This document shows, piece after piece, positions 1,471-16,796 of a stretch of DNA of 64,000 nucleotides. Made by a program: the position numbers and the translations under genes. The DNA is from Cyclobacteriaceae bacterium (GTDB lineage Bacteria > Bacteroidota > Bacteroidia > Cytophagales > Cyclobacteriaceae), in NCBI GenBank assembly GCA_043744235.1, contig JAYTVB010000046.1:41026-105025 (forward strand), in the 5' to 3' direction. The notes under the pieces were generated by a model. The model did no database searches. It was given only the letters and a program-made list of their open reading frames with translations, and was not told the DNA's origin. Numbering within the stretch: the first letter of the stretch is position 1; each line of letters starts with the position of its first letter.

Positions 1471-3663
1471 ATGAGCCGGAAATTCCTGATTTTATTTTGC
1501 CTCCTCTCCATTACTGCATTCGGGCAGACCAAACCTGATTTGCCGGTTTGGAAACCAGCATGGGAAGAAACACGCCAGAATGATTGGCTACTTCAGACTC
1601 CAACCGTGAAGGCCAATGTCTTCAAATCAGAGGACGGCACCACCATTATCCTATACAATGGCCTCCTGAAGCGGGAGTTCGTCCTTTCACCCAATGTAGC
1701 GTGCGTGGACTTCAAAAACCTGAGCAGCGGACAACAATTGCTGAGGGCGGTAAAGCCGGAGGCGCGGATTACCATTCATGGAAGGTCTTTCAATATCGGA
1801 GGGCTTGTCGGGCAAAAGGAACATGCCTATTTCCAAAGGTCGTGGATGCCGAATCTGACAGCAGGCATCCATGACTTCAGGTTCATGGAATACGCTGTAT
1901 CTGACATCTCTCCCTTTCTCAAATGGAAGCCCAACACCTGGACAGGGAACCGCGTTCAGGCTACGGGCAAACATTTGTCTTTTATCTATCGGTCTCCATT
2001 GCCGGAATTGGATGGGCTTGCCGTTGTTGTGCACTATGAGCTGTATGACGGAATCCCATTGGTGGTGAAGTGGATCTCCGTTGAAAATAAGAGCAACAGG
2101 TCCTTTAAGCTTGACCGCGTCACCAATGAGGTACTGGGGCTCGTGGAGGAGGAGAGCGCCGTCGTGGGCCGACCGGATGAGATGAAGAAACAGCATGGCA
2201 TCTATGTCGAGACCAACTATGCCTTTAATAATGCCATGCGGTATGACATCAGCGACCAGACCACCCACTGGAATACGGATTCGGTATACACCTCGCAGGT
2301 GAACTACAATTACCAGACGCCCTGCCTGCTGGAAGTTTATCCGATGAAGGCACCGGGGATTGAACTTATGCCAGGTGAAACATTCAGGTCGGTGCGCACC
2401 CATGAGTTGTTGATGGACAGTTATGACCGTGAGCGCCGTGGACTCGCGATCCGCAGGATGTACCGTACGGTCGCCCCCTGGACCACCCAGAATCCCATCT
2501 TCATGCACCTTGTCAGCAAGAGCGATGATGAAGTGATGACGGCCATTGACCAGTGTGCCGCCACTGGCTATGAGGCCTTGATTTTGAGTTTTGGCAGTCA
2601 TTGCAACATGGAGGATACCTCGCGCGTCAATATTGAAAAATGGAGGAGACTGGCCGGGTATGCCCACAGCAAGAATATTCAGATTGGCAGCTACTCCCTT
2701 TTCAGCAGCCGCCGGATCAGCGATGCGGATGACGTGGTCGACCCAAAAACAGGCAAGCCTGGTGGTGCCTTCTTTGGCAATGCGCCCTGCTTTGGTAGCA
2801 AGTGGGGACTGGCTTATCGCGATAAAATCAAGTATTTCTTTGGAAGCACCGGTTTTGACATTTGGGAGAATGACGGTCCTTACCCGGGCGATGTCTGCGG
2901 GTCAACCAATCACCCTGGTCACAACGGACTGGAGGATTCACAATGGCGACAGATGGCGATACAAAAGGAACTTTACCACTGGATGAACGAAAGAGGCATA
3001 TACATCAATGCCCCTGACTGGTATTTCCTGGATGGCACAAACAAGATCGCCATCGGCTACCGGGAAGTGAATTTTTCATTGCCCCGTGAGCAGCAAATAA
3101 TTCTCAATCGCCAAAACATTTACGACGGTACCTGGGAAAAGACCCCTTCCATGGGCTGGGGATTTGTTCCCCTGACCAAATACCAGGGCGGCGGACCGGA
3201 AGCCGTGCTGGAACCGCTGAGCGAGCACCTGCGGGATTATCAACAATTGATGTTTCAATATTACGCAGCGGGAGTACAGGCCTGTTACCGGGGCCCAAGA
3301 CTGTATGATACGGATGTGACAAGGCAGGCGGTCAAGAGCATGATCGACTGGTACAAGAAGTACAGGGATATACTAAACGCGGACATCATCCACCTGCGCA
3401 GGGCCGACGGGCGGGACTGGGACGGTATTCTGCACGTGAGCCAGGATTTGAAACTAAAGGGAATGCTGCTGTTGTACAATCCAACAAAGGAAAAAATAGT
3501 CAGGACCATTAAGTTGCCTTTGTACTACACGGGTCTTTCCTCGGAAGCACGCATCAGCGAAAAAGGGAAACCTGCAATACGGTATTCGCTCGACCGTAAG
3601 TTGGAAGTTGATTTCACCTTTTCACTCGATGCTGACAGCTATCAATGGTATGTGATTGAGTAG
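1471..3663 (+). CDS. secreted protein of unknown function (weakly glycosidase/TIM-barrel-like)
   Basis: 730-aa uninterrupted ORF with an N-terminal signal peptide (MSRKFLILFCLLSITAFGQ). I recognise no catalytic motif with confidence. Confidence 0.6.
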   Translation: MSRKFLILFCLLSITAFGQTKPDLPVWKPAWEETRQNDWLLQTPTVKANVFKSEDGTTIILYNGLLKREFVLSPNVACVDFKNLSSGQQLLRAVKPEARITIHGRSFNIGGLVGQKEHAYFQRSWMPNLTAGIHDFRFMEYAVSDISPFLKWKPNTWTGNRVQATGKHLSFIYRSPLPELDGLAVVVHYELYDGIPLVVKWISVENKSNRSFKLDRVTNEVLGLVEEESAVVGRPDEMKKQHGIYVETNYAFNNAMRYDISDQTTHWNTDSVYTSQVNYNYQTPCLLEVYPMKAPGIELMPGETFRSVRTHELLMDSYDRERRGLAIRRMYRTVAPWTTQNPIFMHLVSKSDDEVMTAIDQCAATGYEALILSFGSHCNMEDTSRVNIEKWRRLAGYAHSKNIQIGSYSLFSSRRISDADDVVDPKTGKPGGAFFGNAPCFGSKWGLAYRDKIKYFFGSTGFDIWENDGPYPGDVCGSTNHPGHNGLEDSQWRQMAIQKELYHWMNERGIYINAPDWYFLDGTNKIAIGYREVNFSLPREQQIILNRQNIYDGTWEKTPSMGWGFVPLTKYQGGGPEAVLEPLSEHLRDYQQLMFQYYAAGVQACYRGPRLYDTDVTRQAVKSMIDWYKKYRDILNADIIHLRRADGRDWDGILHVSQDLKLKGMLLLYNPTKEKIVRTIKLPLYYTGLSSEARISEKGKPAIRYSLDRKLEVDFTFSLDADSYQWYVIE

Positions 3664-3722
3664 CATGTCGGTCTCAGCCTGCCGTGACCTGCTTAAGTCA
3701 AAAGATTCAATTAATTTGCATC

Positions 3723-4343
3723 ATGAACCTTCAGCCAATATTCCCCCAATTCGATCCTGAACTCCTCAGGCACCTGGAAGAAATCGGACAGGTGGTTGAA
3801 TTTGAAGAGGGTGACATGCTCATGCGCCCAGGCCAATACTTCAAAAACTCTTTGTTGATTCTTGATGGCAGGGTGAAATTGTACCGTGACGGGGAAAACG
3901 GCGAGGAATTTTTCCTCTATTACCTCGAAAAGGGAAATGCCTGTGCCCTCTCCATGATTTGCGCTGCCAAGAATGAGTCCAGCGCCATCAAGGCGCGGGC
4001 CATGACCCGCGTTAAGGCGCTCGCCATACCCATTCATTACATGGATAGCCTGATGAAAGACCATACACAATGGTATTATTTTGTGCTTGAAACCTATCGA
4101 AGCAGGTTCAGTGAACTGCTGGAGGTTATTGACCAGGTGGTGTTTCATTCCATGGATGAAAAACTGGTGTTTTACCTGAAGCGCCAGTTCGAAGCGTTGG
4201 GAGACGGCATCCCCATCACCCACCAGGAAATAGCGGATGACCTCAACTCATCACGGGAGGTAATTTCCCGACTGCTTAAAAAACTGGAGTCGCAGAATAA
4301 AATCTCCATTTCCAGGAATATCATTACAAGGGTCAATTTCTGA
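3723..4343 (+). CDS. Crp/Fnr family transcriptional regulator
   Basis: cNMP-binding-type beta-roll segment (LILDGRVKLYRDGENGEEFFLYYLEKGNACAL). C-terminal HTH (THQEIADDLNSSREVISRLLKKLESQNKI). ATG 3723 is preferred over the in-frame GTG at 3684. Confidence 0.85.
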   Translation: MNLQPIFPQFDPELLRHLEEIGQVVEFEEGDMLMRPGQYFKNSLLILDGRVKLYRDGENGEEFFLYYLEKGNACALSMICAAKNESSAIKARAMTRVKALAIPIHYMDSLMKDHTQWYYFVLETYRSRFSELLEVIDQVVFHSMDEKLVFYLKRQFEALGDGIPITHQEIADDLNSSREVISRLLKKLESQNKISISRNIITRVNF

Positions 4344-4400: not shown

Positions 4401-4416
4401 TGTGACTTGAGTCACT
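4401..4416. promoter_or_regulatory. CRP/FNR-type box 1 (TGTGACTTGAGTCACT)
   Basis: Inverted repeat TGTGAC-N4-GTCAC, equivalent to TGTGA-N6-TCAC. It lies 131 bp upstream of the SQR-like gene. Confidence 0.55.
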
Positions 4417-4423
4417 GGCCTTG

Positions 4424-4439
4424 TGTGACCTGAGTCACA
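4424..4439. promoter_or_regulatory. CRP/FNR-type box 2 (TGTGACCTGAGTCACA)
   Basis: Both 6-bp arms TGTGAC/GTCACA are perfectly complementary; only the 4-bp spacer CTGA is asymmetric. It lies 108 bp upstream of the SQR-like gene and 23 bp centre-to-centre from box 1. Confidence 0.6.
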
Positions 4440-4546
4440 TAACTGCCTGATTTACTGATCAAAATCACTGGGTTTGGTGAGGACAATCATCATTTCGGAC
4501 TGGTTCCCCCCCATACTTTTACTTCCACACACAAACCAGTCAGATC

Positions 4547-5803
4547 ATGAAAAATATTGTCATTCTCGGAGCGGGAACAGCGGGGACCATGATGGCCAAC
4601 AAGCTCCACAAAGCAATCAACCGGAAGATCTGGGATATTACCATCATCGATAAGGATGCGAAGCACTACTACCAGCCCGGATTCCTCTTTATACCGTTCG
4701 GAATTTATCAACCCGAAGAAGTTGTTCGCACCAAAGCTGAATTCCTTCCAAAGGATGTCAATTTTATCCTGGATGAGATCAGCAGGATTGAGGGGGAAAA
4801 GAGCCAGGTTACCCTCAAGGGCGGGAGAACCATCCGATACGATGTTCTGATCATTGCCACCGGTGCCAATGTGGTCCCCGAAGAAACGCCCGGACTTATC
4901 GGTGATTTGTGGTACAAGGACATTTTTGACTTCTACACCTTTGAAGGCACCACGGCTTTGGCTAACAAATTCAAGGATTGGCAAGGCGGTAAGTTGGTCA
5001 TCAACCTCATGGAGACCACAATCAAGTGCCCGGTGGCTCCGCTTGAATTTGCCTTCCTGGCAGATGCCTTCTTTACTGAAAAGGGAATTCGGCACCTGGT
5101 TGACATCTCTTATGTCACCCCGCTTTCCGGCGCATTCACGAAGCCCAAGGCCACGAAAATGCTCAGCGCACTGCTGGAAGAAAAACACATTACCGTAGTA
5201 CCCGACTTTTACGTGCAGGAAGTTGACAATGCAAGAAAGGTCCTGGTCTCTTACGACCAGAAGGAAGTGCCTTTTGACTTGCTCGTGACAATCCCGGTAA
5301 ACAAGGGCGCTGACATGATTGGTTCAAGCGGCATGGGTGATGAGGATGGACTTAACTTCATTCCCACCGACAGGCAGACACTCCAATCCAAAAAATTTGA
5401 AAATGTATTCGTGATCGGTGACGCTACCAACGTGCCAGCATCGAAAGCAGGTTCAGTGGCTCACTTCGAAGGAGAAATCCTCCTGGAAAACATTCTGAGC
5501 TACATCAATAACCTGCCGCTTGAGGCCAAATTTGACGGACATGCCAATTGCTTTATAGAAACGGGATATGGCAAAGCTGCCCTCATTGACTTTAACTACA
5601 CCACCGAACCGCTGGCGGGAAAATTTCCGTGGCCGGTTGTCGGCCCCATGGGTCTGCTGAAAGTTACGCGGGCCAATCACCTGGGCAAGCTGGCGTTCCG
5701 TTGGGTTTACTGGCACATGTTACTCACCGGAAAAAACCTGCCGGTCAGTACGCACATGTCCATGGCCGGGAAAGAAGTTGACAAAGAAGTAAACACGCAT
5801 TAA
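4547..5803 (+). CDS. sulfide:quinone oxidoreductase-like FAD-dependent oxidoreductase
   Basis: N-terminal Rossmann motif IVILGAGTAGT and second dinucleotide motif VFVIGDATN. The only two Cys (KCPVAP near residue 161, HANCFIETG near residue 335) sit where SQR redox cysteines are expected. Confidence 0.75.
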   Translation: MKNIVILGAGTAGTMMANKLHKAINRKIWDITIIDKDAKHYYQPGFLFIPFGIYQPEEVVRTKAEFLPKDVNFILDEISRIEGEKSQVTLKGGRTIRYDVLIIATGANVVPEETPGLIGDLWYKDIFDFYTFEGTTALANKFKDWQGGKLVINLMETTIKCPVAPLEFAFLADAFFTEKGIRHLVDISYVTPLSGAFTKPKATKMLSALLEEKHITVVPDFYVQEVDNARKVLVSYDQKEVPFDLLVTIPVNKGADMIGSSGMGDEDGLNFIPTDRQTLQSKKFENVFVIGDATNVPASKAGSVAHFEGEILLENILSYINNLPLEAKFDGHANCFIETGYGKAALIDFNYTTEPLAGKFPWPVVGPMGLLKVTRANHLGKLAFRWVYWHMLLTGKNLPVSTHMSMAGKEVDKEVNTH

Positions 5804-5827
5804 TCAAGACACATAAAACCAATCTAT

Positions 5828-6139
5828 ATGGAAACCTTAATCATGAACCTCGCACAAGTTGAAAGAAATGAGGAGGGATATTTGAAGAAAGTATCCGACT
5901 GGACTCCTGATCTCGCGCATGAAATTGCCAGGGAAGCCGGCATCACGCTCACCGACAAGCATTTTGAAGTGCTGAACTGGCTTCGGGCCAAACAAGCCGA
6001 AGGAGTGGCACTGAGCATCAGAAAAATGGGTGCCTCCGGAATCGTTGATATCAAGCAGTTCTACGCATTGTTTCCGGGTGGACCGCTGAAGATCTCCAGC
6101 AAGATTGCCGGCATTCCCAAACCCGTCAGCTGCATTTAG
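5828..6139 (+). CDS. TusE/DsrC-family sulfur relay protein (single-Cys, TusE-like)
   Basis: 103 aa. C-terminal arm KIAGIPKPVSCI closely matches the TusE/DsrC terminus as I remember it. There is no second Cys about 10 residues upstream. Confidence 0.8.
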   Translation: METLIMNLAQVERNEEGYLKKVSDWTPDLAHEIAREAGITLTDKHFEVLNWLRAKQAEGVALSIRKMGASGIVDIKQFYALFPGGPLKISSKIAGIPKPVSCI

Positions 6140-6181
6140 ACATCATTTAAAAAACATCAAAGTCCAAAGGACACCAACATT

Positions 6182-6715
6182 ATGAACGATCTAGTGGATA
6201 TGGCTCAACCCAAGGTTACCCCGGCACAAAAAATGGAGAAACCGAAAGTAAAAAAAGTGCTGATCATATGCTCGAAGGGAAAAATTGAAGACGTATATGC
6301 TGCATTGGTTATGGCCAACGGCGCCCTGATGGAAGGCATTGAAGCCAAAATGTTCTTTACCTTCTTTGGCCTCGAAGCCATCACCAAAAAGCATGCTGAT
6401 CACCTGCATACCGCGACCGTCGGCAACCCGGCATTCATGCCTGCGATGCCGACCATGGTTGCCGGTCTTCCCGGATTTGAGGCTTTCGCATCCTACATGA
6501 TGAGAAAGGAAATGGATAAACTGGACATGCCGCATGTAACCGAATTCCTGCAAATGATTGATGCGGGCGGTGGAGAAATTTATGCCTGCAAACTGGCTGC
6601 TGATATGTTCCATCTTAAGAAAGAGGATTTTCTGCCTGAAGTGAAGGGGATAATCACCGTGGGTGATATGTATGCCCTGGCTGACGGTGTAGGTACTCAA
6701 ATCATTTTCATCTGA
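6182..6715 (+). CDS. DsrE/DsrF-like family protein
   Basis: 177 aa. VLIICSKGKIEDVYAALVMANGAL and FFTFFGL segments, plus a conserved Cys in GEIYACKLA. Confidence 0.7.
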   Translation: MNDLVDMAQPKVTPAQKMEKPKVKKVLIICSKGKIEDVYAALVMANGALMEGIEAKMFFTFFGLEAITKKHADHLHTATVGNPAFMPAMPTMVAGLPGFEAFASYMMRKEMDKLDMPHVTEFLQMIDAGGGEIYACKLAADMFHLKKEDFLPEVKGIITVGDMYALADGVGTQIIFI

Positions 6716-6742
6716 TTGGTTTTAGTGTGTTGGGATGGAAAC

Positions 6743-6779
6743 AGGCCGCTGGAACTTAGGTTCTGGCGGCCTTCGTTTT
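6743..6779 (+). terminator. intrinsic terminator after the SQR-TusE-DsrE unit
   Basis: Stem AGGCCGC (6743-6749) / GCGGCCT (6766-6772), followed by TCGTTTTG. Confidence 0.5.
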
Positions 6780-6809
6780 GCAGGAAAAATCAAGCCGATT
6801 TTTCGCCTG

Positions 6810-6825
6810 CGTAACCCAAGTCACA
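6810..6825. promoter_or_regulatory. CRP/FNR-type box 3 (CGTAACCCAAGTCACA)
   Basis: Half-degenerate box with the same spacing, 71 bp upstream of the HMA gene. It nearly equals the reverse complement of box 5. Confidence 0.45.
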
Positions 6826-6895
6826 GACCCAAATCATGTTGCAGCCGATATTTGTGTCAGCATGCCGATAAACACATTATTTAGACACTGACACC

Positions 6896-7174
6896 ATGAT
6901 GAAAACGCAGATTTTGGTTGAAAACCTGAAGTGCAACGGCTGTGCCAATACGATCAGGAAGGCGCTCTCTCAGTTGGAGGGTGTCTCAAAGGTTGAAGTG
7001 GATGTTGTAGAAGGCCGTGTTGATGTTGATTTTGGTGATTCGATAGCATCGGAATCCATCAAACAGAAATTATCCCAACTGGGATATCCTGAAGTTGATG
7101 CCCTGCGTGGCCTCAACAAGGTGGCAGCTAATGCCAGGTCGTTTGTCAGCTGTGCAGTGGGAAGAGTTTCATAG
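6896..7174 (+). CDS. heavy-metal-associated (HMA) domain protein, CopZ-like
   Basis: 92 aa. Metal-binding loop LKCNGCANTIRKAL (CxxC) in a ferredoxin-like pattern. Confidence 0.75.
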   Translation: MMKTQILVENLKCNGCANTIRKALSQLEGVSKVEVDVVEGRVDVDFGDSIASESIKQKLSQLGYPEVDALRGLNKVAANARSFVSCAVGRVS

Positions 7175-7203
7175 AATAAGATAGAATTTTAGAGTGATAG
7201 GTG

Positions 7204-7416
7204 ATGAAGAAGTGGACCATGCTAGGATTGGGATTGGTGCTTGGCGCAGCTGGCGGATACCTGTACTGGTATTACGTGGGATGTGTGAGTGGCAGCTGCG
7301 CCATCACTTCTTCAGCGGTCAACAGTTCACTGTACGGCGGAATGATGGGCACTTTGCTCGTTAACGCGTTCGCTCCAGTCTCGAAAAAGGCCCCAAACAC
7401 AAGGGAACCTGGATAA
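7204..7416 (+). CDS. small membrane protein with CxxxxC motif (DUF6132-like)
   Basis: About 70 aa with two hydrophobic helices flanking YYVGCVSGSCAITSS. It is 30 bp downstream of the HMA gene. Confidence 0.55.
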   Translation: MKKWTMLGLGLVLGAAGGYLYWYYVGCVSGSCAITSSAVNSSLYGGMMGTLLVNAFAPVSKKAPNTREPG

Positions 7417-7450
7417 ATTCCCCTGAATCCTGACGAAAATTCAGTTTGGA

Positions 7451-7466
7451 AGTGACCAAAGTCATC
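7451..7466. promoter_or_regulatory. CRP/FNR-type box 4 (AGTGACCAAAGTCATC)
   Basis: Degenerate box with the same spacing, 115 bp upstream of the DUF2892 gene. Confidence 0.4.
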
Positions 7467-7516
7467 TGAATTGGCTGGCGGGCCGGATAGCTTTGATTCT
7501 AACCACCTTAGGTCTG

Positions 7517-7532
7517 TGTGACCTGGGTTACT
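7517..7532. promoter_or_regulatory. CRP/FNR-type box 5 (TGTGACCTGGGTTACT)
   Basis: Same spacing, 49 bp upstream of the DUF2892 gene. It is the mirror image of box 3 (GTAAC variant arm). Confidence 0.45.
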
Positions 7533-7580
7533 GATTAACTTCCGGCGAGCCGGTAATATTGAGGAAACATAAAAAACACT

Positions 7581-7808
7581 ATGAAAAAGAATATGGGTAA
7601 TGCTGATCGGATTGTCAGGTTGATAATCTCAGCTGTTTTAGTTTGGATGTATGCTACGGGCGTTATTGAAGGTACTTTGGGGATCGTGCTGATTGCATTG
7701 TCCGCTGTGTTCGTTCTAACCAGCCTCGTGAGCTTCTGTCCGTTGTATTTGCCGTTTGGCCTGAGCACCAGGAAAAACAACGAAGCAACTCCTGAAGTAA
7801 AAAAATAG
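7581..7808 (+). CDS. DUF2892 (YgaP-like transmembrane domain) protein
   Basis: 75 aa. MGNADRIVRLIISAVL...SFCPLY signature and two TM helices. Confidence 0.75.
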   Translation: MKKNMGNADRIVRLIISAVLVWMYATGVIEGTLGIVLIALSAVFVLTSLVSFCPLYLPFGLSTRKNNEATPEVKK

Positions 7809-7817
7809 GCAGAGAAG

Positions 7818-8135
7818 ATGTTTGATTCAATTAAAAATATGCTGGGGCTGGGTCCCCAGGCAGATTACGCTGCGCTGGTGAAACAAGGCGCCATTATCCT
7901 GGACGTGCGCAGCAAAGGTGAATACACTGGCGGCCACATCAGGGGTTCAGTCAATGTACCGGTAGACCAGCTGCAACGGAATTTAAGCCGGTTTCCGGAC
8001 AAGCAAAAACCAATCATTACCTGCTGTGCCTCAGGCGGACGCAGTGCCTCGGCCAAAAGTATTTTAAAGTCCAGTGGATATGTCAATGTTCACAATGGTG
8101 GAAGCTGGACAGGACTCAAAAGCAAAATTTCATAA
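7818..8135 (+). CDS. rhodanese-like sulfurtransferase domain protein
   Basis: 105 aa. Active-site loop CCASGGRS and GGHIRGSVNVP. Confidence 0.85.
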   Translation: MFDSIKNMLGLGPQADYAALVKQGAIILDVRSKGEYTGGHIRGSVNVPVDQLQRNLSRFPDKQKPIITCCASGGRSASAKSILKSSGYVNVHNGGSWTGLKSKIS

Positions 8136-8138
8136 TAT

Positions 8139-8606
8139 ATGGACCCCCATGTTTATCATGTCGATATCGCCTGGAGCAAAGACCGCAAAGGGATGATGTG
8201 TTCCCCGGATTTGGGCAAAGATGGCGCGCCTTTTGGCGGCTGCATTGAAGTGGCTACCCCTCCTGAGTTTCCCAAAGGAATCCCCGGCATTTGGTCGCCT
8301 GAGCATTTGTTTACCGCCTCCATCAGCAGCTGCCTGATGACCACCTTCCTGGCGATTGCCGAAAACTCGAAACTGGATTTTGTTTCCTTCAAGTGCGGAT
8401 CCAAAGGCAAACTCGAGCAAGTGGATGGAAAATTCATGATGTCTGAAGTAATACTGGAGCCGCAGGTGGTGGTACGGGACGAGAAGGACGTGGAGAAGGC
8501 ATTGAAAGTCCTGCAGAAATCCGAGGCGAATTGCCTGATTTCTAACTCCGTCAAGGCCAGGATCATCATGAACCCGGTTGTGCATGTTGAAATGGTTAAC
8601 GTATAA
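8139..8606 (+). CDS. OsmC/Ohr-family protein
   Basis: 155 aa. SPEHLFTASISSCLMTTF and EANCLISNSV (two-Cys OsmC pattern). Confidence 0.75.
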   Translation: MDPHVYHVDIAWSKDRKGMMCSPDLGKDGAPFGGCIEVATPPEFPKGIPGIWSPEHLFTASISSCLMTTFLAIAENSKLDFVSFKCGSKGKLEQVDGKFMMSEVILEPQVVVRDEKDVEKALKVLQKSEANCLISNSVKARIIMNPVVHVEMVNV

Positions 8607-8917
8607 TGAATATGTCCAGTGTATCGTTTTCACAATTGATACAGAGCGAAAAGCCAACCTTTGTTGATTTCTCGGCTGAGTGGTGCGGACCATGCAAGAT
8701 GATGGCACCCGTCCTGGAAGAACTGAAATCCAAAGTAGGGGACAAGGCAAAAGTAATCAAGGTGGATGTTGACAGGAATCCTTCTGCGGCCGCCGCTTAC
8801 CAGGTTCGGACAGTGCCTACCCTGATGATTTTCAAGAACGGGCAAGTAGTGTGGAGGCAGTCGGGGGTGGTCCCTTCGGCCTACCTGAAACGGGTCATCG
8901 AGCAGCACTACAACTAG
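8606..8917 (+). CDS. trxA: thioredoxin
   Basis: 103 aa. WCGPCK active site. Its start overlaps the OsmC-like stop. Confidence 0.9.
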   Translation: MNMSSVSFSQLIQSEKPTFVDFSAEWCGPCKMMAPVLEELKSKVGDKAKVIKVDVDRNPSAAAAYQVRTVPTLMIFKNGQVVWRQSGVVPSAYLKRVIEQHYN

Positions 8918-12984: not shown

Positions 12985-12987
12985 AAG

Positions 12988-13069
12988 TGCCGAAGGCGGG
13001 ACTCGAACCCGCATACCTTGCGGCACACGCCCCTGAAACGTGCGTGTCTACCAATTTCACCACTTCGGC
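12988..13069 (-). tRNA. tRNA-Leu (anticodon CAG)
   Basis: I folded the cloverleaf manually. Acceptor GCCGAAG, D-arm GTG/CAC, anticodon stem CACGT/GCGTG with loop TTCAGGG, long variable arm, T-arm GGGTTCGAGTCCC. No encoded CCA. Confidence 0.85.
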
Positions 13070-13115
13070 GTTCTCCTCACCCTCTCCAAACGGGAGAGGT
13101 GCAGGGGTGAGGTTG

Positions 13116-13197
13116 TGCCCGGGACTGGACTCGAACCAGCATACCTTACGGCATACGCCCCTCAAACGTACGTGTCTACCAATTTCACCACCCGGGC
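13116..13197 (-). tRNA. tRNA-Leu (anticodon GAG)
   Basis: I folded the cloverleaf manually. Acceptor GCCCGGG, anticodon stem TACGT/GCGTA with loop TTGAGGG, long variable arm, T-loop GGTTCGAGTCC. Confidence 0.85.
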
Positions 13198-14840: not shown

Positions 14841-15018
14841 ACACAACTGCTGGGGTGGGTGTATATGTGATATGAGCTACGAATAATGGTTAAGTAAGAC
14901 ATTTCGACCCTGGCTTGGAGGCGTCTTTCAACCTTTCCACCGATTCCCTGACTTTGAAATTACTTTAAAATCAAAAAAGAAGGCAGCCACACTTGCATGT
15001 AACTGCCTCATATTTAAG

Positions 15019-15090
15019 AGCCGAGAATCAGGATTGAACTGACGACCTGCTGATTACGAATCAGCTGCTCTACCGCTGAGCTACCTCGGC
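15019..15090 (-). tRNA. tRNA-Thr (anticodon CGT)
   Basis: 72-nt cloverleaf folded manually. Acceptor GCCGAGG, D-arm GCTC/GAGC, anticodon stem GCTGA/TCAGC with loop TTCGTAA, T-loop TTCAATC. Confidence 0.85.
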
Positions 15091-16762: not shown

Positions 16763-16796
16763 CCGCCCCGACACCATCGGGGCGGTTTTGTTTTGT
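16763..16796 (+). terminator. attenuator terminator upstream of ilvE
   Basis: Stem CCGCCCCGA (16763-16771) / TCGGGGCGG (16777-16785), loop CACCA, then TTTTGTTTTGT. GTCGGGG (16724-16730) can alternatively pair with CCCCGAC (16766-16772). Confidence 0.7.

Follow-up and report, generated by a model that had tools for sequence, protein, structure and literature searches.

The 64-kb stretch of DNA analysed here (the window) comes from a Cyclobacteriaceae bacterium (contig JAYTVB010000046.1 of GenBank assembly GCA_043744235.1, positions 41,026 to 105,025). It carries a gene for a CRP/FNR-family regulator, followed by a sulfur-centred gene cluster whose intergenic regions contain five 16-bp palindromes of the form TGTGA-N6-TCACA, boxes 1 to 5 (Table 1). 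As argued below, these boxes are very likely bound by the adjacent regulator, which probably activates transcription from them, and the signal is rather likely to derive from sulfide.

Table 1. Genes, boxes and promoter elements of the cluster, with positions in the window
Feature	Position	Strand	Remarks
CRP/FNR-family regulator, 206 aa	3723..4343	+	Pfam cNMP_binding, HTH_Crp_2, Crp
Box 1	4401..4416	no strand	TGTGACTTGAGTCACT; distal strong site, lying about 118 bp before the predicted SQR transcription start
Box 2	4424..4439	no strand	TGTGACCTGAGTCACA; perfect palindrome; strong SQR promoter site, upstream at about -95
Weak middle box (tentative)	4454..4469	no strand	ACTGATCAAAATCACT; C-GA(C/T)CAAA(A/G)TCA kept in four sequences
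Weak promoter-proximal box (tentative)	4476..4491	no strand	GGTGAGGACAATCATC; GTGAG-N4-RTCAT invariant in four sequences
Candidate -7 element of the SQR operon	4514..4521	+	TACTTTTA; position kept in L044 and L046
Type III sulfide:quinone reductase (SQR)	4547..5803	+	NF049943, 637.7 bits (cutoff 525); Pfam Pyr_redox_2
TusE/DsrC-family sulfur relay protein	5828..6139	+	Pfam DsrC; TIGR03342, 73 bits (cutoff 53.5)
DsrE/DsrE2-like sulfur carrier	6182..6715	+	Pfam DrsE_2, 98 bits; NCBIfam DsrE2 below cutoff
Intrinsic-terminator-like hairpin ending the SQR unit	6743..6772	+	13-pair stem with 8 G-C pairs, then TCGTTTTGCA
Box 3	6810..6825	+	CGTAACCCAAGTCACA; class II-type site, HMA-DUF6132 promoter
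-7 element of box 3	6847..6854	+	GATATTTG; exactly 21 bp after the box
HMA-domain protein (CopZ-like, CxxC)	6896..7174	+	Pfam HMA
DUF6132 small membrane protein	7201..7416	+	Pfam DUF6132; behind boxes in many loci
Box 4	7451..7466	+	AGTGACCAAAGTCATC; weak, probably the upstream tandem promoter of the YgaP unit
-7 element of box 4	7488..7495	+	TAGCTTTG; perfect, 21 bp after the box
Box 5	7517..7532	+	TGTGACCTGGGTTACT; class II-type site, YgaP-rhodanese-OsmC-thioredoxin promoter
-7 element of box 5	7554..7561	+	TAATATTG; 21 bp after the box
YgaP-like (DUF2892) small membrane protein	7581..7808	+	Pfam YgaP-like_TM
Single-domain rhodanese (sulfurtransferase)	7818..8135	+	Pfam Rhodanese
OsmC-like thiol peroxidase family protein	8139..8606	+	Pfam OsmC
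Thioredoxin	8606..8917	+	TIGR01068, 114 bits (cutoff 96.8)

Four of the five boxes stand out from the whole window

A sequence check bore out what the first-pass annotation of this DNA had said of the boxes themselves: the five 16-mers lie where it had placed them, they fill the three large gaps found from 4.3 to 8.9 kb (203, 180 and 164 bp, the only intergenic ones longer than 50 bp), they end 49–131 bp before each unit's first gene, and boxes 3 and 5 are nearly exact reverse complements, differing at 2 of 16 positions. Its statement that the 64 kb hold no comparable further copy also held when both strands were scanned with a position weight matrix trained on the sites of other genomes, with the window left out.

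Plain counting of the consensus TGTGAC-N4-GTCACA was dropped as evidence in favour of this outside-trained matrix, because with up to three mismatches it gave 23 matches in the 64 kb against 25.7 expected by chance; for the same reason, box 4, like any other match with three mismatches, carries no significance by itself. Zero to two mismatches are found in boxes 1, 2, 3 and 5 and in three further matches, at 16794, 19182 and 57453, which were rejected as sites of equal standing since their matrix scores do not exceed 9.4 bits. Boxes 1, 2, 3 and 5 are the four best matrix sites of the window, at 18.8–20.7 bits (18.8 for box 1, 19.9–20.7 for box 2, 18.9 for box 3 and 19.7 for box 5), and the best scores of shuffled 64-kb sequences were 11–17 bits. 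With a composite score, which adds to the box matrix a -7 promoter element at the canonical spacing described below, box 3 reached 26.2, the highest value in the window, and box 5 reached 21.6. Box 4 scored 5.3 bits in the plus and 11.7 bits in the minus orientation, within the null range, and its composite score of 14.8, with a perfect -7 element (TAGCTTTG), only equals the null maximum.

Conservation of the box at orthologous loci

We compared the window with the loci of regulator orthologues from 42 genomes (48–85% identity; up to 8 kb on each side of the gene), the closest of which, with about 80–85% identity, come from the Cytophagales (Ohtaekwangia, Chryseolinea and Cyclobacteriaceae); Ohtaekwangia kribbensis and Chryseolinea lacunae are cultivable relatives with the orthologue. 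Comparison DNA, either genome loci or metagenome contigs, is labelled L001 onward. The core motif GTGAC-N4-GTCAC, allowing one mismatch, occurs 68 times in the window and the 42 loci, and 56 of these copies fall in the 14% of the DNA that is intergenic by a crude call of open reading frames (ORFs). Thirty of the 42 loci have one or more composite sites, which in 20 cases lie within 200 bp after the stop codon of the regulator gene. Such sites are co-directional with the regulator in 60 of 64 instances. Nearly all copies of the core motif are followed, 55–95 bp downstream on the regulator's strand, by a gene start. The 562 kb of orthologous loci hold these 64 composite sites as against 1–2 in shuffled sequences, a comparison that is partly circular, because the matrix was trained there.

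The genes behind the boxes vary from genome to genome and are drawn from a recurring set. This comprises proteins of about 470 aa with an MBL fold and a rhodanese domain (the architecture of persulfide dioxygenase-rhodanese fusions), TauE/SafE exporters, type III SQR and single-domain rhodaneses; DUF6132, YgaP-like and DUF983 membrane proteins; OsmC, thioredoxin, redoxin and peroxiredoxin; an OEP-HlyD-RND efflux system and a TehB/TPMT-like methyltransferase; SulP with a carbonic anhydrase; a SoxA/TsdA-like cytochrome; and, in metagenomes, YeeE/YedE with DUF6691. Enrichment and conservation of the motif upstream of the same gene families, which the first-pass annotation had put forward as a check, are thus observed, with sites in 30 of 42 loci, a bias to intergenic DNA and recurring families behind them. 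Its compact local regulon needs amending: the sulfur cluster with its boxes is there, and the regulon to which it belongs is not local, being Bacteroidota-wide and variable in gene content.

Relatives also inform on box 4. Its core (TGACCAAAGTCA) is kept in L043 and L044, 65–66 bp upstream of box 5, and the spacer behind it has diverged: in L043 box 4 is identical and the spacer differs, while L044 has ACTGACCAAAGTCAGT at the place of box 4, 65 bp before its counterpart of box 5, and TACTATTG follows at the canonical distance behind an unrelated spacer. We accept box 4 because of this conservation with canonical -7 spacing, and it is probably a weak second promoter site of the YgaP unit.

Half-site variants are promoter-specific and kept between species (window, L006, L014, L023, L024, L031, L043 and L044), YgaP promoters having mostly a GTTAC promoter-proximal arm and HMA promoters a GTAAC distal arm. 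The GTAAC distal arm of box 3 is kept in L043 and L044, and the GTTAC proximal arm of box 5 recurs in the YgaP promoters of L006, L014, L023, L024, L031 and L043. Such variants suggest tuned affinities.

The box lies at a fixed distance from the -7 element

When 52 sites were aligned by their boxes and all turned to read toward the gene behind them, three elements alone proved conserved: the box, a GA dinucleotide right after it and the sequence nAnnTTTG. The last corresponds to the Bacteroidota -7 element, so named for its position around -7. The promoter consensus quoted in the literature for Bacteroidota is TTG-N17–23-TAnnTTTG; the alignment has no conserved TTG at -33, and its spacer between box and -7 element is devoid of information content. 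We then scored TAnnTTTG (at least five of six positions matching) at offsets 20–59 from the first box base in 63 non-redundant sites outside the window. It starts at exactly position 38, that is, 21 bp after the box, in 47 of them; no other offset occurs more than twice, and the opposite strand gave one match. This geometry of box, 21 bp and TAnnTTTG is common to at least 12 unrelated gene families. Boxes 3, 4 and 5 comply with it; boxes 1 and 2 do not, having no -7 element at position 38.

The GA dinucleotide carries 0.6–0.8 bits and stands just 3' of the box, on the promoter side only (6826–6827 and 7533–7534 in the window); it might be part of an extended recognition site or a substitute for the absent -33 element.

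From the usual position of the -7 element, transcription would start near position 49–51, in the window at about 6859, 7500 and 7566 for boxes 3, 4 and 5 and at about 4526 for the SQR operon. The box would then be centred near -41.5, where CRP and FNR sit at class II promoters. Among the marks of class II promoters, the fixed spacing and the absence of a -33 element are therefore observed, and the value of -41.5 is derived. A sigma-70 promoter scan returned 9 against a background of 6.9 ± 2.3, with a model that is not applicable to Bacteroidota promoters; of its output, the terminator at 6743–6772 alone was retained.

These data also settle whether the palindromes might be chance matches or non-regulatory repeats. 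Such a reading could point to the consensus, which with three mismatches occurs at chance rate, and to box 4, which by itself lies inside the null range; but four boxes beat every shuffle, the sites are strongly enriched in intergenic DNA, the boxes are kept while their spacers are randomised, and the distance to the -7 element is fixed. The comparative data already refute it, and the probability that we would still grant it is negligible.

The SQR promoter resembles a tandem array

Boxes 1 and 2 were examined by comparing the SQR promoter of the window with those of L044, L046 and L043, the last of which has lost the SQR genes. Three islands are conserved in otherwise diverged DNA, namely the strong palindrome (box 2) and two weak boxes, which we designate middle and proximal. 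A strong box is kept at the relative place of box 2 in L043, L044 and L046, 51–52 bp upstream of the weak proximal box; box 1 is present in the window alone and not in these relatives. The middle box starts 30 bp downstream of box 2 and, with 3.3 bits, is among the top 0.05% of window positions. From the proximal box to TACTTTTG in L046 and to CACCTTTA in L044 the distance is exactly 21 bp; to TACTTTTA in the window it is 22 bp, one base more than the canonical spacing. Both weak boxes are tentative. This suggests a tandem array of sites at the SQR promoter, centred near -42, -64 and -95, plus -118 in the window only, and reminiscent of class III CRP promoters. Boxes 1 and 2 had been annotated, like the rest, as operators; their role as sites is supported, and their place is not promoter-proximal, since they would be upstream sites of a multi-site promoter.

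Activation or repression

Transcription factors of the CRP/FNR type that are centred near -41.5 are typically activators. We consider it likely that the regulator activates at these sites as well, because a spacing fixed to the base pair across unrelated gene families, whose spacers are randomised, is expected from contact between protein and polymerase, not from occlusion. The same sites and protein could instead serve repression, the box overlapping the -33 region and blocking RNA polymerase until reactive sulfur releases the protein, which is the mode of CstR, SqrR and BigR. The box does cover the location of a would-be -33 element, and there is ample precedent: nearly all characterised primary sensors of reactive sulfur species (RSS) are Cys-pair repressors released from DNA, FisR being the exception among the well-studied ones (PMC13467558). 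Yet repression fits poorly with a spacing that is exact in 47 of 63 sites and in at least 12 unrelated families, with promoters in which no -33 element is conserved, with the usual behaviour of CRP/FNR proteins at this position, and with an SQR promoter whose phased upstream sites, 22 and 51–52 bp further up, suit activation. We regard a repressor as unlikely.

The regulator and its link to the boxes

The regulator is a member of the CRP/FNR superfamily, with Pfam scores above the cutoffs for PF00027 (44.8 bits), PF13545 (36.7) and PF00325 (28.2), and its sequence matches in the PDB include NtcA, CRP, CprK and DNR. In a BLASTP alignment with E. coli CRP, R178, E179 and R183 of the recognition helix align with CRP R180, E181 and R185 (R-E-x3-R), the residues with which CRP reads TGTGA, and the helix SREVISRLLK is almost invariant in 150 family representatives. 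The cAMP contacts are lost, with Leu76 in place of CRP E72 and Ser86 in place of R82; only S83 keeps a serine (Ser87). Its assignment as CRP, FNR or NtcA was rejected after testing for their defining features; the NCBIfam CRP model gave 47 bits against a cutoff of 266 and the NtcA model TIGR03697 gave 57.9 against 245.

C74 and C80, within the sequence G-x-A-C-A-L-S-M-I-C-A-A, are the sole cysteines of the protein, whose N-terminal 70 residues have none. Both are present in 41 of 41 orthologues, down to 48% identity, and the segment corresponds to the phosphate-binding cassette of CRP. In the wider family, surveyed in the 150 best representatives at 50% clustering, C74 is kept in about 143 and C80 in 85, a CC doublet often replacing the latter. 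The closest solved structure by sequence, PDB 3dv8 (E = 4.5e-17), also has a C-x5-C motif (CLLSASC).

We hold it highly probable that the boxes are functional sites for this regulator subfamily, and binding by this particular protein is very likely: such palindromes accompany the regulator gene in 30 of 42 genomes and are compatible with the recognition helix. The boxes could also belong to another CRP/FNR paralogue, the adjacent gene being a bystander. TGTGA-N6-TCACA is indeed a generic CRP-type motif, Bacteroidota are rich in CRP/FNR paralogues (3922 representative clusters at E ≤ 0.001), and L043 has a second cNMP-binding gene next door. However, box and regulator occur together in those 30 genomes despite differing targets, a site directly follows the stop codon of the regulator gene in 20, the gene sits inside a box-driven operon in L011 and L012, and members of the subfamily are encoded on 28 of 120 metagenome contigs listed for the DNA signature (next section), though most of these are only 1–2 kb long; a paralogue is therefore very improbable. 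The first-pass annotation had made the boxes operators of the regulator encoded at 3723–4343. That assignment survives, on the evidence of the helix, the co-occurrence and the metagenome recovery, with the difference that their position is that of class II activator sites and not of repressor operators.

Upstream of the regulator gene itself, the matrix scan found no scoring site in the window. A box-like GTGAC-N8-GTCAA (GTGACCTGCTTAAGTCAA) occurs at 3684–3701, just upstream of the start codon; its half-sites are 8 nt apart, as against 4 nt in the boxes, and it gets no matrix score. Autoregulation in the window was accordingly rejected.

The DNA signature alone recovers members of the proposed regulon from metagenomes

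We searched metagenomes with the DNA pattern GTGAC-N4-GTCAC-N-GA-N19-TA-NN-TTTG, unconditioned on any protein, and obtained at least 120 contigs; all counts that follow are among the matches listed. An ORF starts within 60 nt after the -7 element in 88 of 120 contigs. Families of the sulfur regulon provide the first gene in 44 and one of the first four genes in 53, and those recovered are YgaP (the most frequent first gene), persulfide dioxygenase (PDO)-rhodanese, YeeE/DUF6691, TauE, rhodanese, DUF6132, DUF983, thioredoxin, redoxin, SQR and the RND pump. The regulator homologues on the 28 contigs mentioned above show 26–73% identity and mostly have the Cys pair.

Other genes were also found behind the signature. 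In seven contigs from gut and other metagenomes (L064, at 3289–3333, L072, L085, L090, L097, L132 and L154), the box TGTGACCCCGGTCACC precedes genes for an 87-aa 2x[4Fe-4S] ferredoxin and a Cys-rich Fer4_5 membrane protein of 235–248 aa, with a CRP/FNR homologue of 26% identity and a C-x5-C motif (GEVCTLSAACMMQ) about 1.2 kb away; this pair is a different regulon with the same DNA signature. In soil contigs L051, L052, L055, L056 and L081, the box TGTGACGGCAGTCACA (CGTGACGGCTGTCACA in L051) has a canonical -7 element and is followed by genes for a multihaem cytochrome c (Paired_CXXCH), an unannotated protein of 839–890 aa and a SoxA-like cytochrome. Evidently, to judge from these contigs, related regulators reuse the signature for other operons.

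Gene context in the window

The trio of type III SQR, TusE/DsrC and DsrE2-like genes (4547–6715) is kept in L013, L019 and L044, and its co-transcription suggests a persulfide relay that takes sulfur from SQR. L043 and L044 show a hairpin equivalent to the one that ends this unit. The ORF at 114–1346, immediately before the cluster region, appears by eye to encode a pyridoxal phosphate-dependent enzyme of Cys/Met metabolism (motif SLTKFINGTSD); enzymes of this class are able to liberate H2S or methanethiol. No non-coding RNA with a bearing on the cluster turned up when the window was scanned with Rfam and for tRNAs; the sole Rfam and ARAGORN matches are two tRNA-Leu (CAG, GAG) and one tRNA-Thr (CGT) on the minus strand, at 12987–13197 and 15018–15090.

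A sulfide-derived signal is favoured

We propose that a dimer of the regulator, a member of a large Bacteroidota subfamily marked by Cys-x5-Cys in the effector pocket, would bind the boxes. At three promoters (that of box 3 and the tandem ones of boxes 4 and 5), the site would replace the -33 element, centred about 41.5 bp upstream of the start, and the bound regulator would recruit RNA polymerase by class II activation. The SQR-TusE-DsrE2 operon would have a weak site in the class II position, with boxes 1 and 2 as strong helpers about 118 and 95 bp upstream, in a class III-like arrangement. The signal would most likely be sulfide-derived reactive sulfur, persulfide or polysulfide, sensed by Cys74 and Cys80, and the regulator would turn on genes that oxidise sulfide, transfer sulfur, export sulfite and repair thiols.

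A sulfur-derived signal seems rather likely, for three reasons: the core targets are canonical genes of sulfide oxidation and of sulfite and thiosulfate transport; known sulfur sensors control the same genes, RSS sensors governing the set of SQR, persulfide dioxygenase-rhodanese, TauE and YeeE (PMC13467558); and the two pocket cysteines are the only conserved reactive residues. That sulfide set (type III SQR, MBL-rhodanese persulfide dioxygenase, TauE and YeeE) is found behind the boxes, and from the sites it is probably controlled by the regulator. Sensing of sulfur through thiol chemistry is plausible. Taken jointly, we give slightly better than even chances to boxes that bind the adjacent regulator, class II activation and a sulfide-derived signal acting through Cys74 and Cys80, all three being read from sequence.

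A number of observations tell against this combined interpretation. Twelve of the 42 loci (L007, L016, L021, L022, L029, L032, L035–L039 and L041) have the regulator and no scoring site in the DNA compared; their targets may lie elsewhere, or the motif may have drifted in the most distant orthologues, for example to TGTAAC-N4-GTTACA in L041. Box 4 alone is significant neither by consensus counting nor by the matrix, boxes 1 and 2 are among the best matches and break the 21-bp rule, the middle and proximal SQR boxes score 0–5 bits, and the value of -41.5 depends on the -7 element being at its usual position. The precedent of repression among RSS sensors has been cited above. Finally, a single-sequence AlphaFold model of the regulator, with a mean pLDDT of 37, was unusable.

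Two further points concern the signal. Products encoded behind the boxes, such as the HMA/CopZ-like protein, RND pump, OsmC, peroxiredoxin, thioredoxin and TehB-like methyltransferase, also fit metal or general thiol stress, and the Cys segment aligns with the haem-ligand segment of CooA (AC74ALSMIC80 with FC75MH77SGC80, C80 on C80), which makes haem a serious alternative to a dithiol. Sites and regulator may thus be as proposed and the signal be something other than sulfane sulfur on a dithiol: haem bound via Cys74 could sense H2S, CO or NO, as in CooA, DNR and HcpR; the Cys pair could bind a soft metal (Cu, Ag, Hg or Cd); or it could respond to general disulfide or electrophile stress. Haem reportedly takes part in sulfide sensing by SqrR/YgaV too. 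On the other side, the commonest and most widely shared targets (PDO-rhodanese, TauE, YeeE, SQR and rhodaneses) are specific to sulfide and persulfide, and the sensor domain has no invariant histidine. As to metals, no P-type ATPase, MerA or CzcD-type gene, and no other metal ATPase or reductase, was seen behind any box, and the HMA gene is confined to loci of the window type. A metal regulon built on a CusA/CzcA-type RND pump was rejected, since the pump stays below the cutoff of every heavy-metal model and scores best with multidrug-type models. We consider these other signals, all together, rather doubtful. Of the inducers that the first-pass annotation had proposed, those based on sulfur agree with a cluster that is clearly sulfur-centred, and copper becomes a less likely signal.

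Relation to known sulfur sensors and CRP/FNR proteins

Sulfide and persulfide sensing has been worked out in Firmicutes and Proteobacteria, with CstR, SqrR/BigR/YgaV and FisR. For Bacteroidota, a dominant phylum of sulfide-rich environments such as soil, ocean and gut, we came across no such sensor. We found no CRP/FNR-family sulfur sensor and no such motif in Bacteroidota in the full-text literature, whose coverage was incomplete, so that an earlier description is possible; a CRP-like motif reported in Chlorobaculum is a different, spacer-less one. The primary reactive-sulfur sensors of a 2026 review belong to the CsoR, ArsR and Fis families only, plus a MarR-type factor (PMC13467558). Whether the regulator represents a fourth structural class of RSS sensor, a CRP/FNR protein with Cys-x5-Cys or a Cys-ligated haem in the former cAMP pocket that would serve as class II activator and main sulfide/persulfide regulator of Bacteroidota, its signature being reused by paralogues for other redox operons, seems to us evenly balanced. 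If it does, the pattern of box, 21 bp and TAnnTTTG would allow the regulon to be read from genome and metagenome sequence. The analysis offers a regulator, a precise DNA signature, a conserved regulon, predicted transcription starts and two cysteines; it would link the uncharacterised small membrane proteins YgaP-like, DUF6132 and DUF983 to sulfur stress. The promoters also make up a clean collection of natural Bacteroidota examples of class II-type activation, whose fixed 21-bp spacing could serve the design of promoters and sulfide biosensors in this phylum.

The regulator shares with E. coli CRP the R-E-x3-R recognition helix and, in its predicted sites, the 16-bp palindrome TGTGA-N6-TCACA, a centre near -41.5 that takes the place of the upstream hexamer and, at one promoter, extra upstream sites near -93. 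It differs from CRP in lacking the cAMP contacts and having two invariant cysteines in the pocket, in the Bacteroidota -7 element TAnnTTTG of its promoters, and in a predicted regulon of sulfur detoxification, not carbon catabolism. FNR is of the same superfamily and is also a class II activator from -41.5. It is an oxygen sensor whose [4Fe-4S] ligands are C20, C23, C29 and C122 and whose site is TTGAT-N4-ATCAA, whereas the regulator has only two cysteines, without an N-terminal Cys cluster, and a GTGAC-N4-GTCAC box.

CooA, a CO sensor with Cys75 and His77 as haem ligands, has the same family fold, and the Cys segment falls on the CooA segment with Cys75, His77 and Cys80. In this alignment, made with a CooA sequence checked against PDB 1ft9, Ser77 stands at the place of His77 and C74 lies one residue before CooA C75, but the two proteins are only 21% identical and the BLASTP alignment is gapped and ambiguous. 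DNR and HcpR are haem-based NO sensors; unlike CooA, DNR and HcpR, the regulator has sulfur genes as predicted targets, not CO dehydrogenase or NO reductases. PDB 3dv8 is a distant homologue from structural genomics, a Crp/Fnr-family protein by its entry name only.

Among sulfur sensors, CstR (CsoR family) and SqrR/BigR (ArsR family) have a conserved Cys pair, as the regulator does, whose gene likewise adjoins those for SQR, persulfide dioxygenase-rhodanese, rhodaneses and TauE/YeeE-type transporters. It is not a member of their families, its CRP/FNR fold being unrelated, and its cysteines are six residues apart in one chain, in a cNMP-type pocket; moreover, CstR and SqrR/BigR are repressors released from DNA, whereas the geometry indicates an activator here. 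In this last respect it would resemble FisR of Cupriavidus, a sigma-54-dependent activator of sqr and pdo that senses sulfane sulfur through cysteines (PMC13467558). Both would activate sulfide-oxidation genes: FisR, an AAA+ enhancer-binding protein, acts at a distance together with sigma-54, and the regulator would act from a CRP-type site at -41.5 next to a housekeeping-type -7 element.

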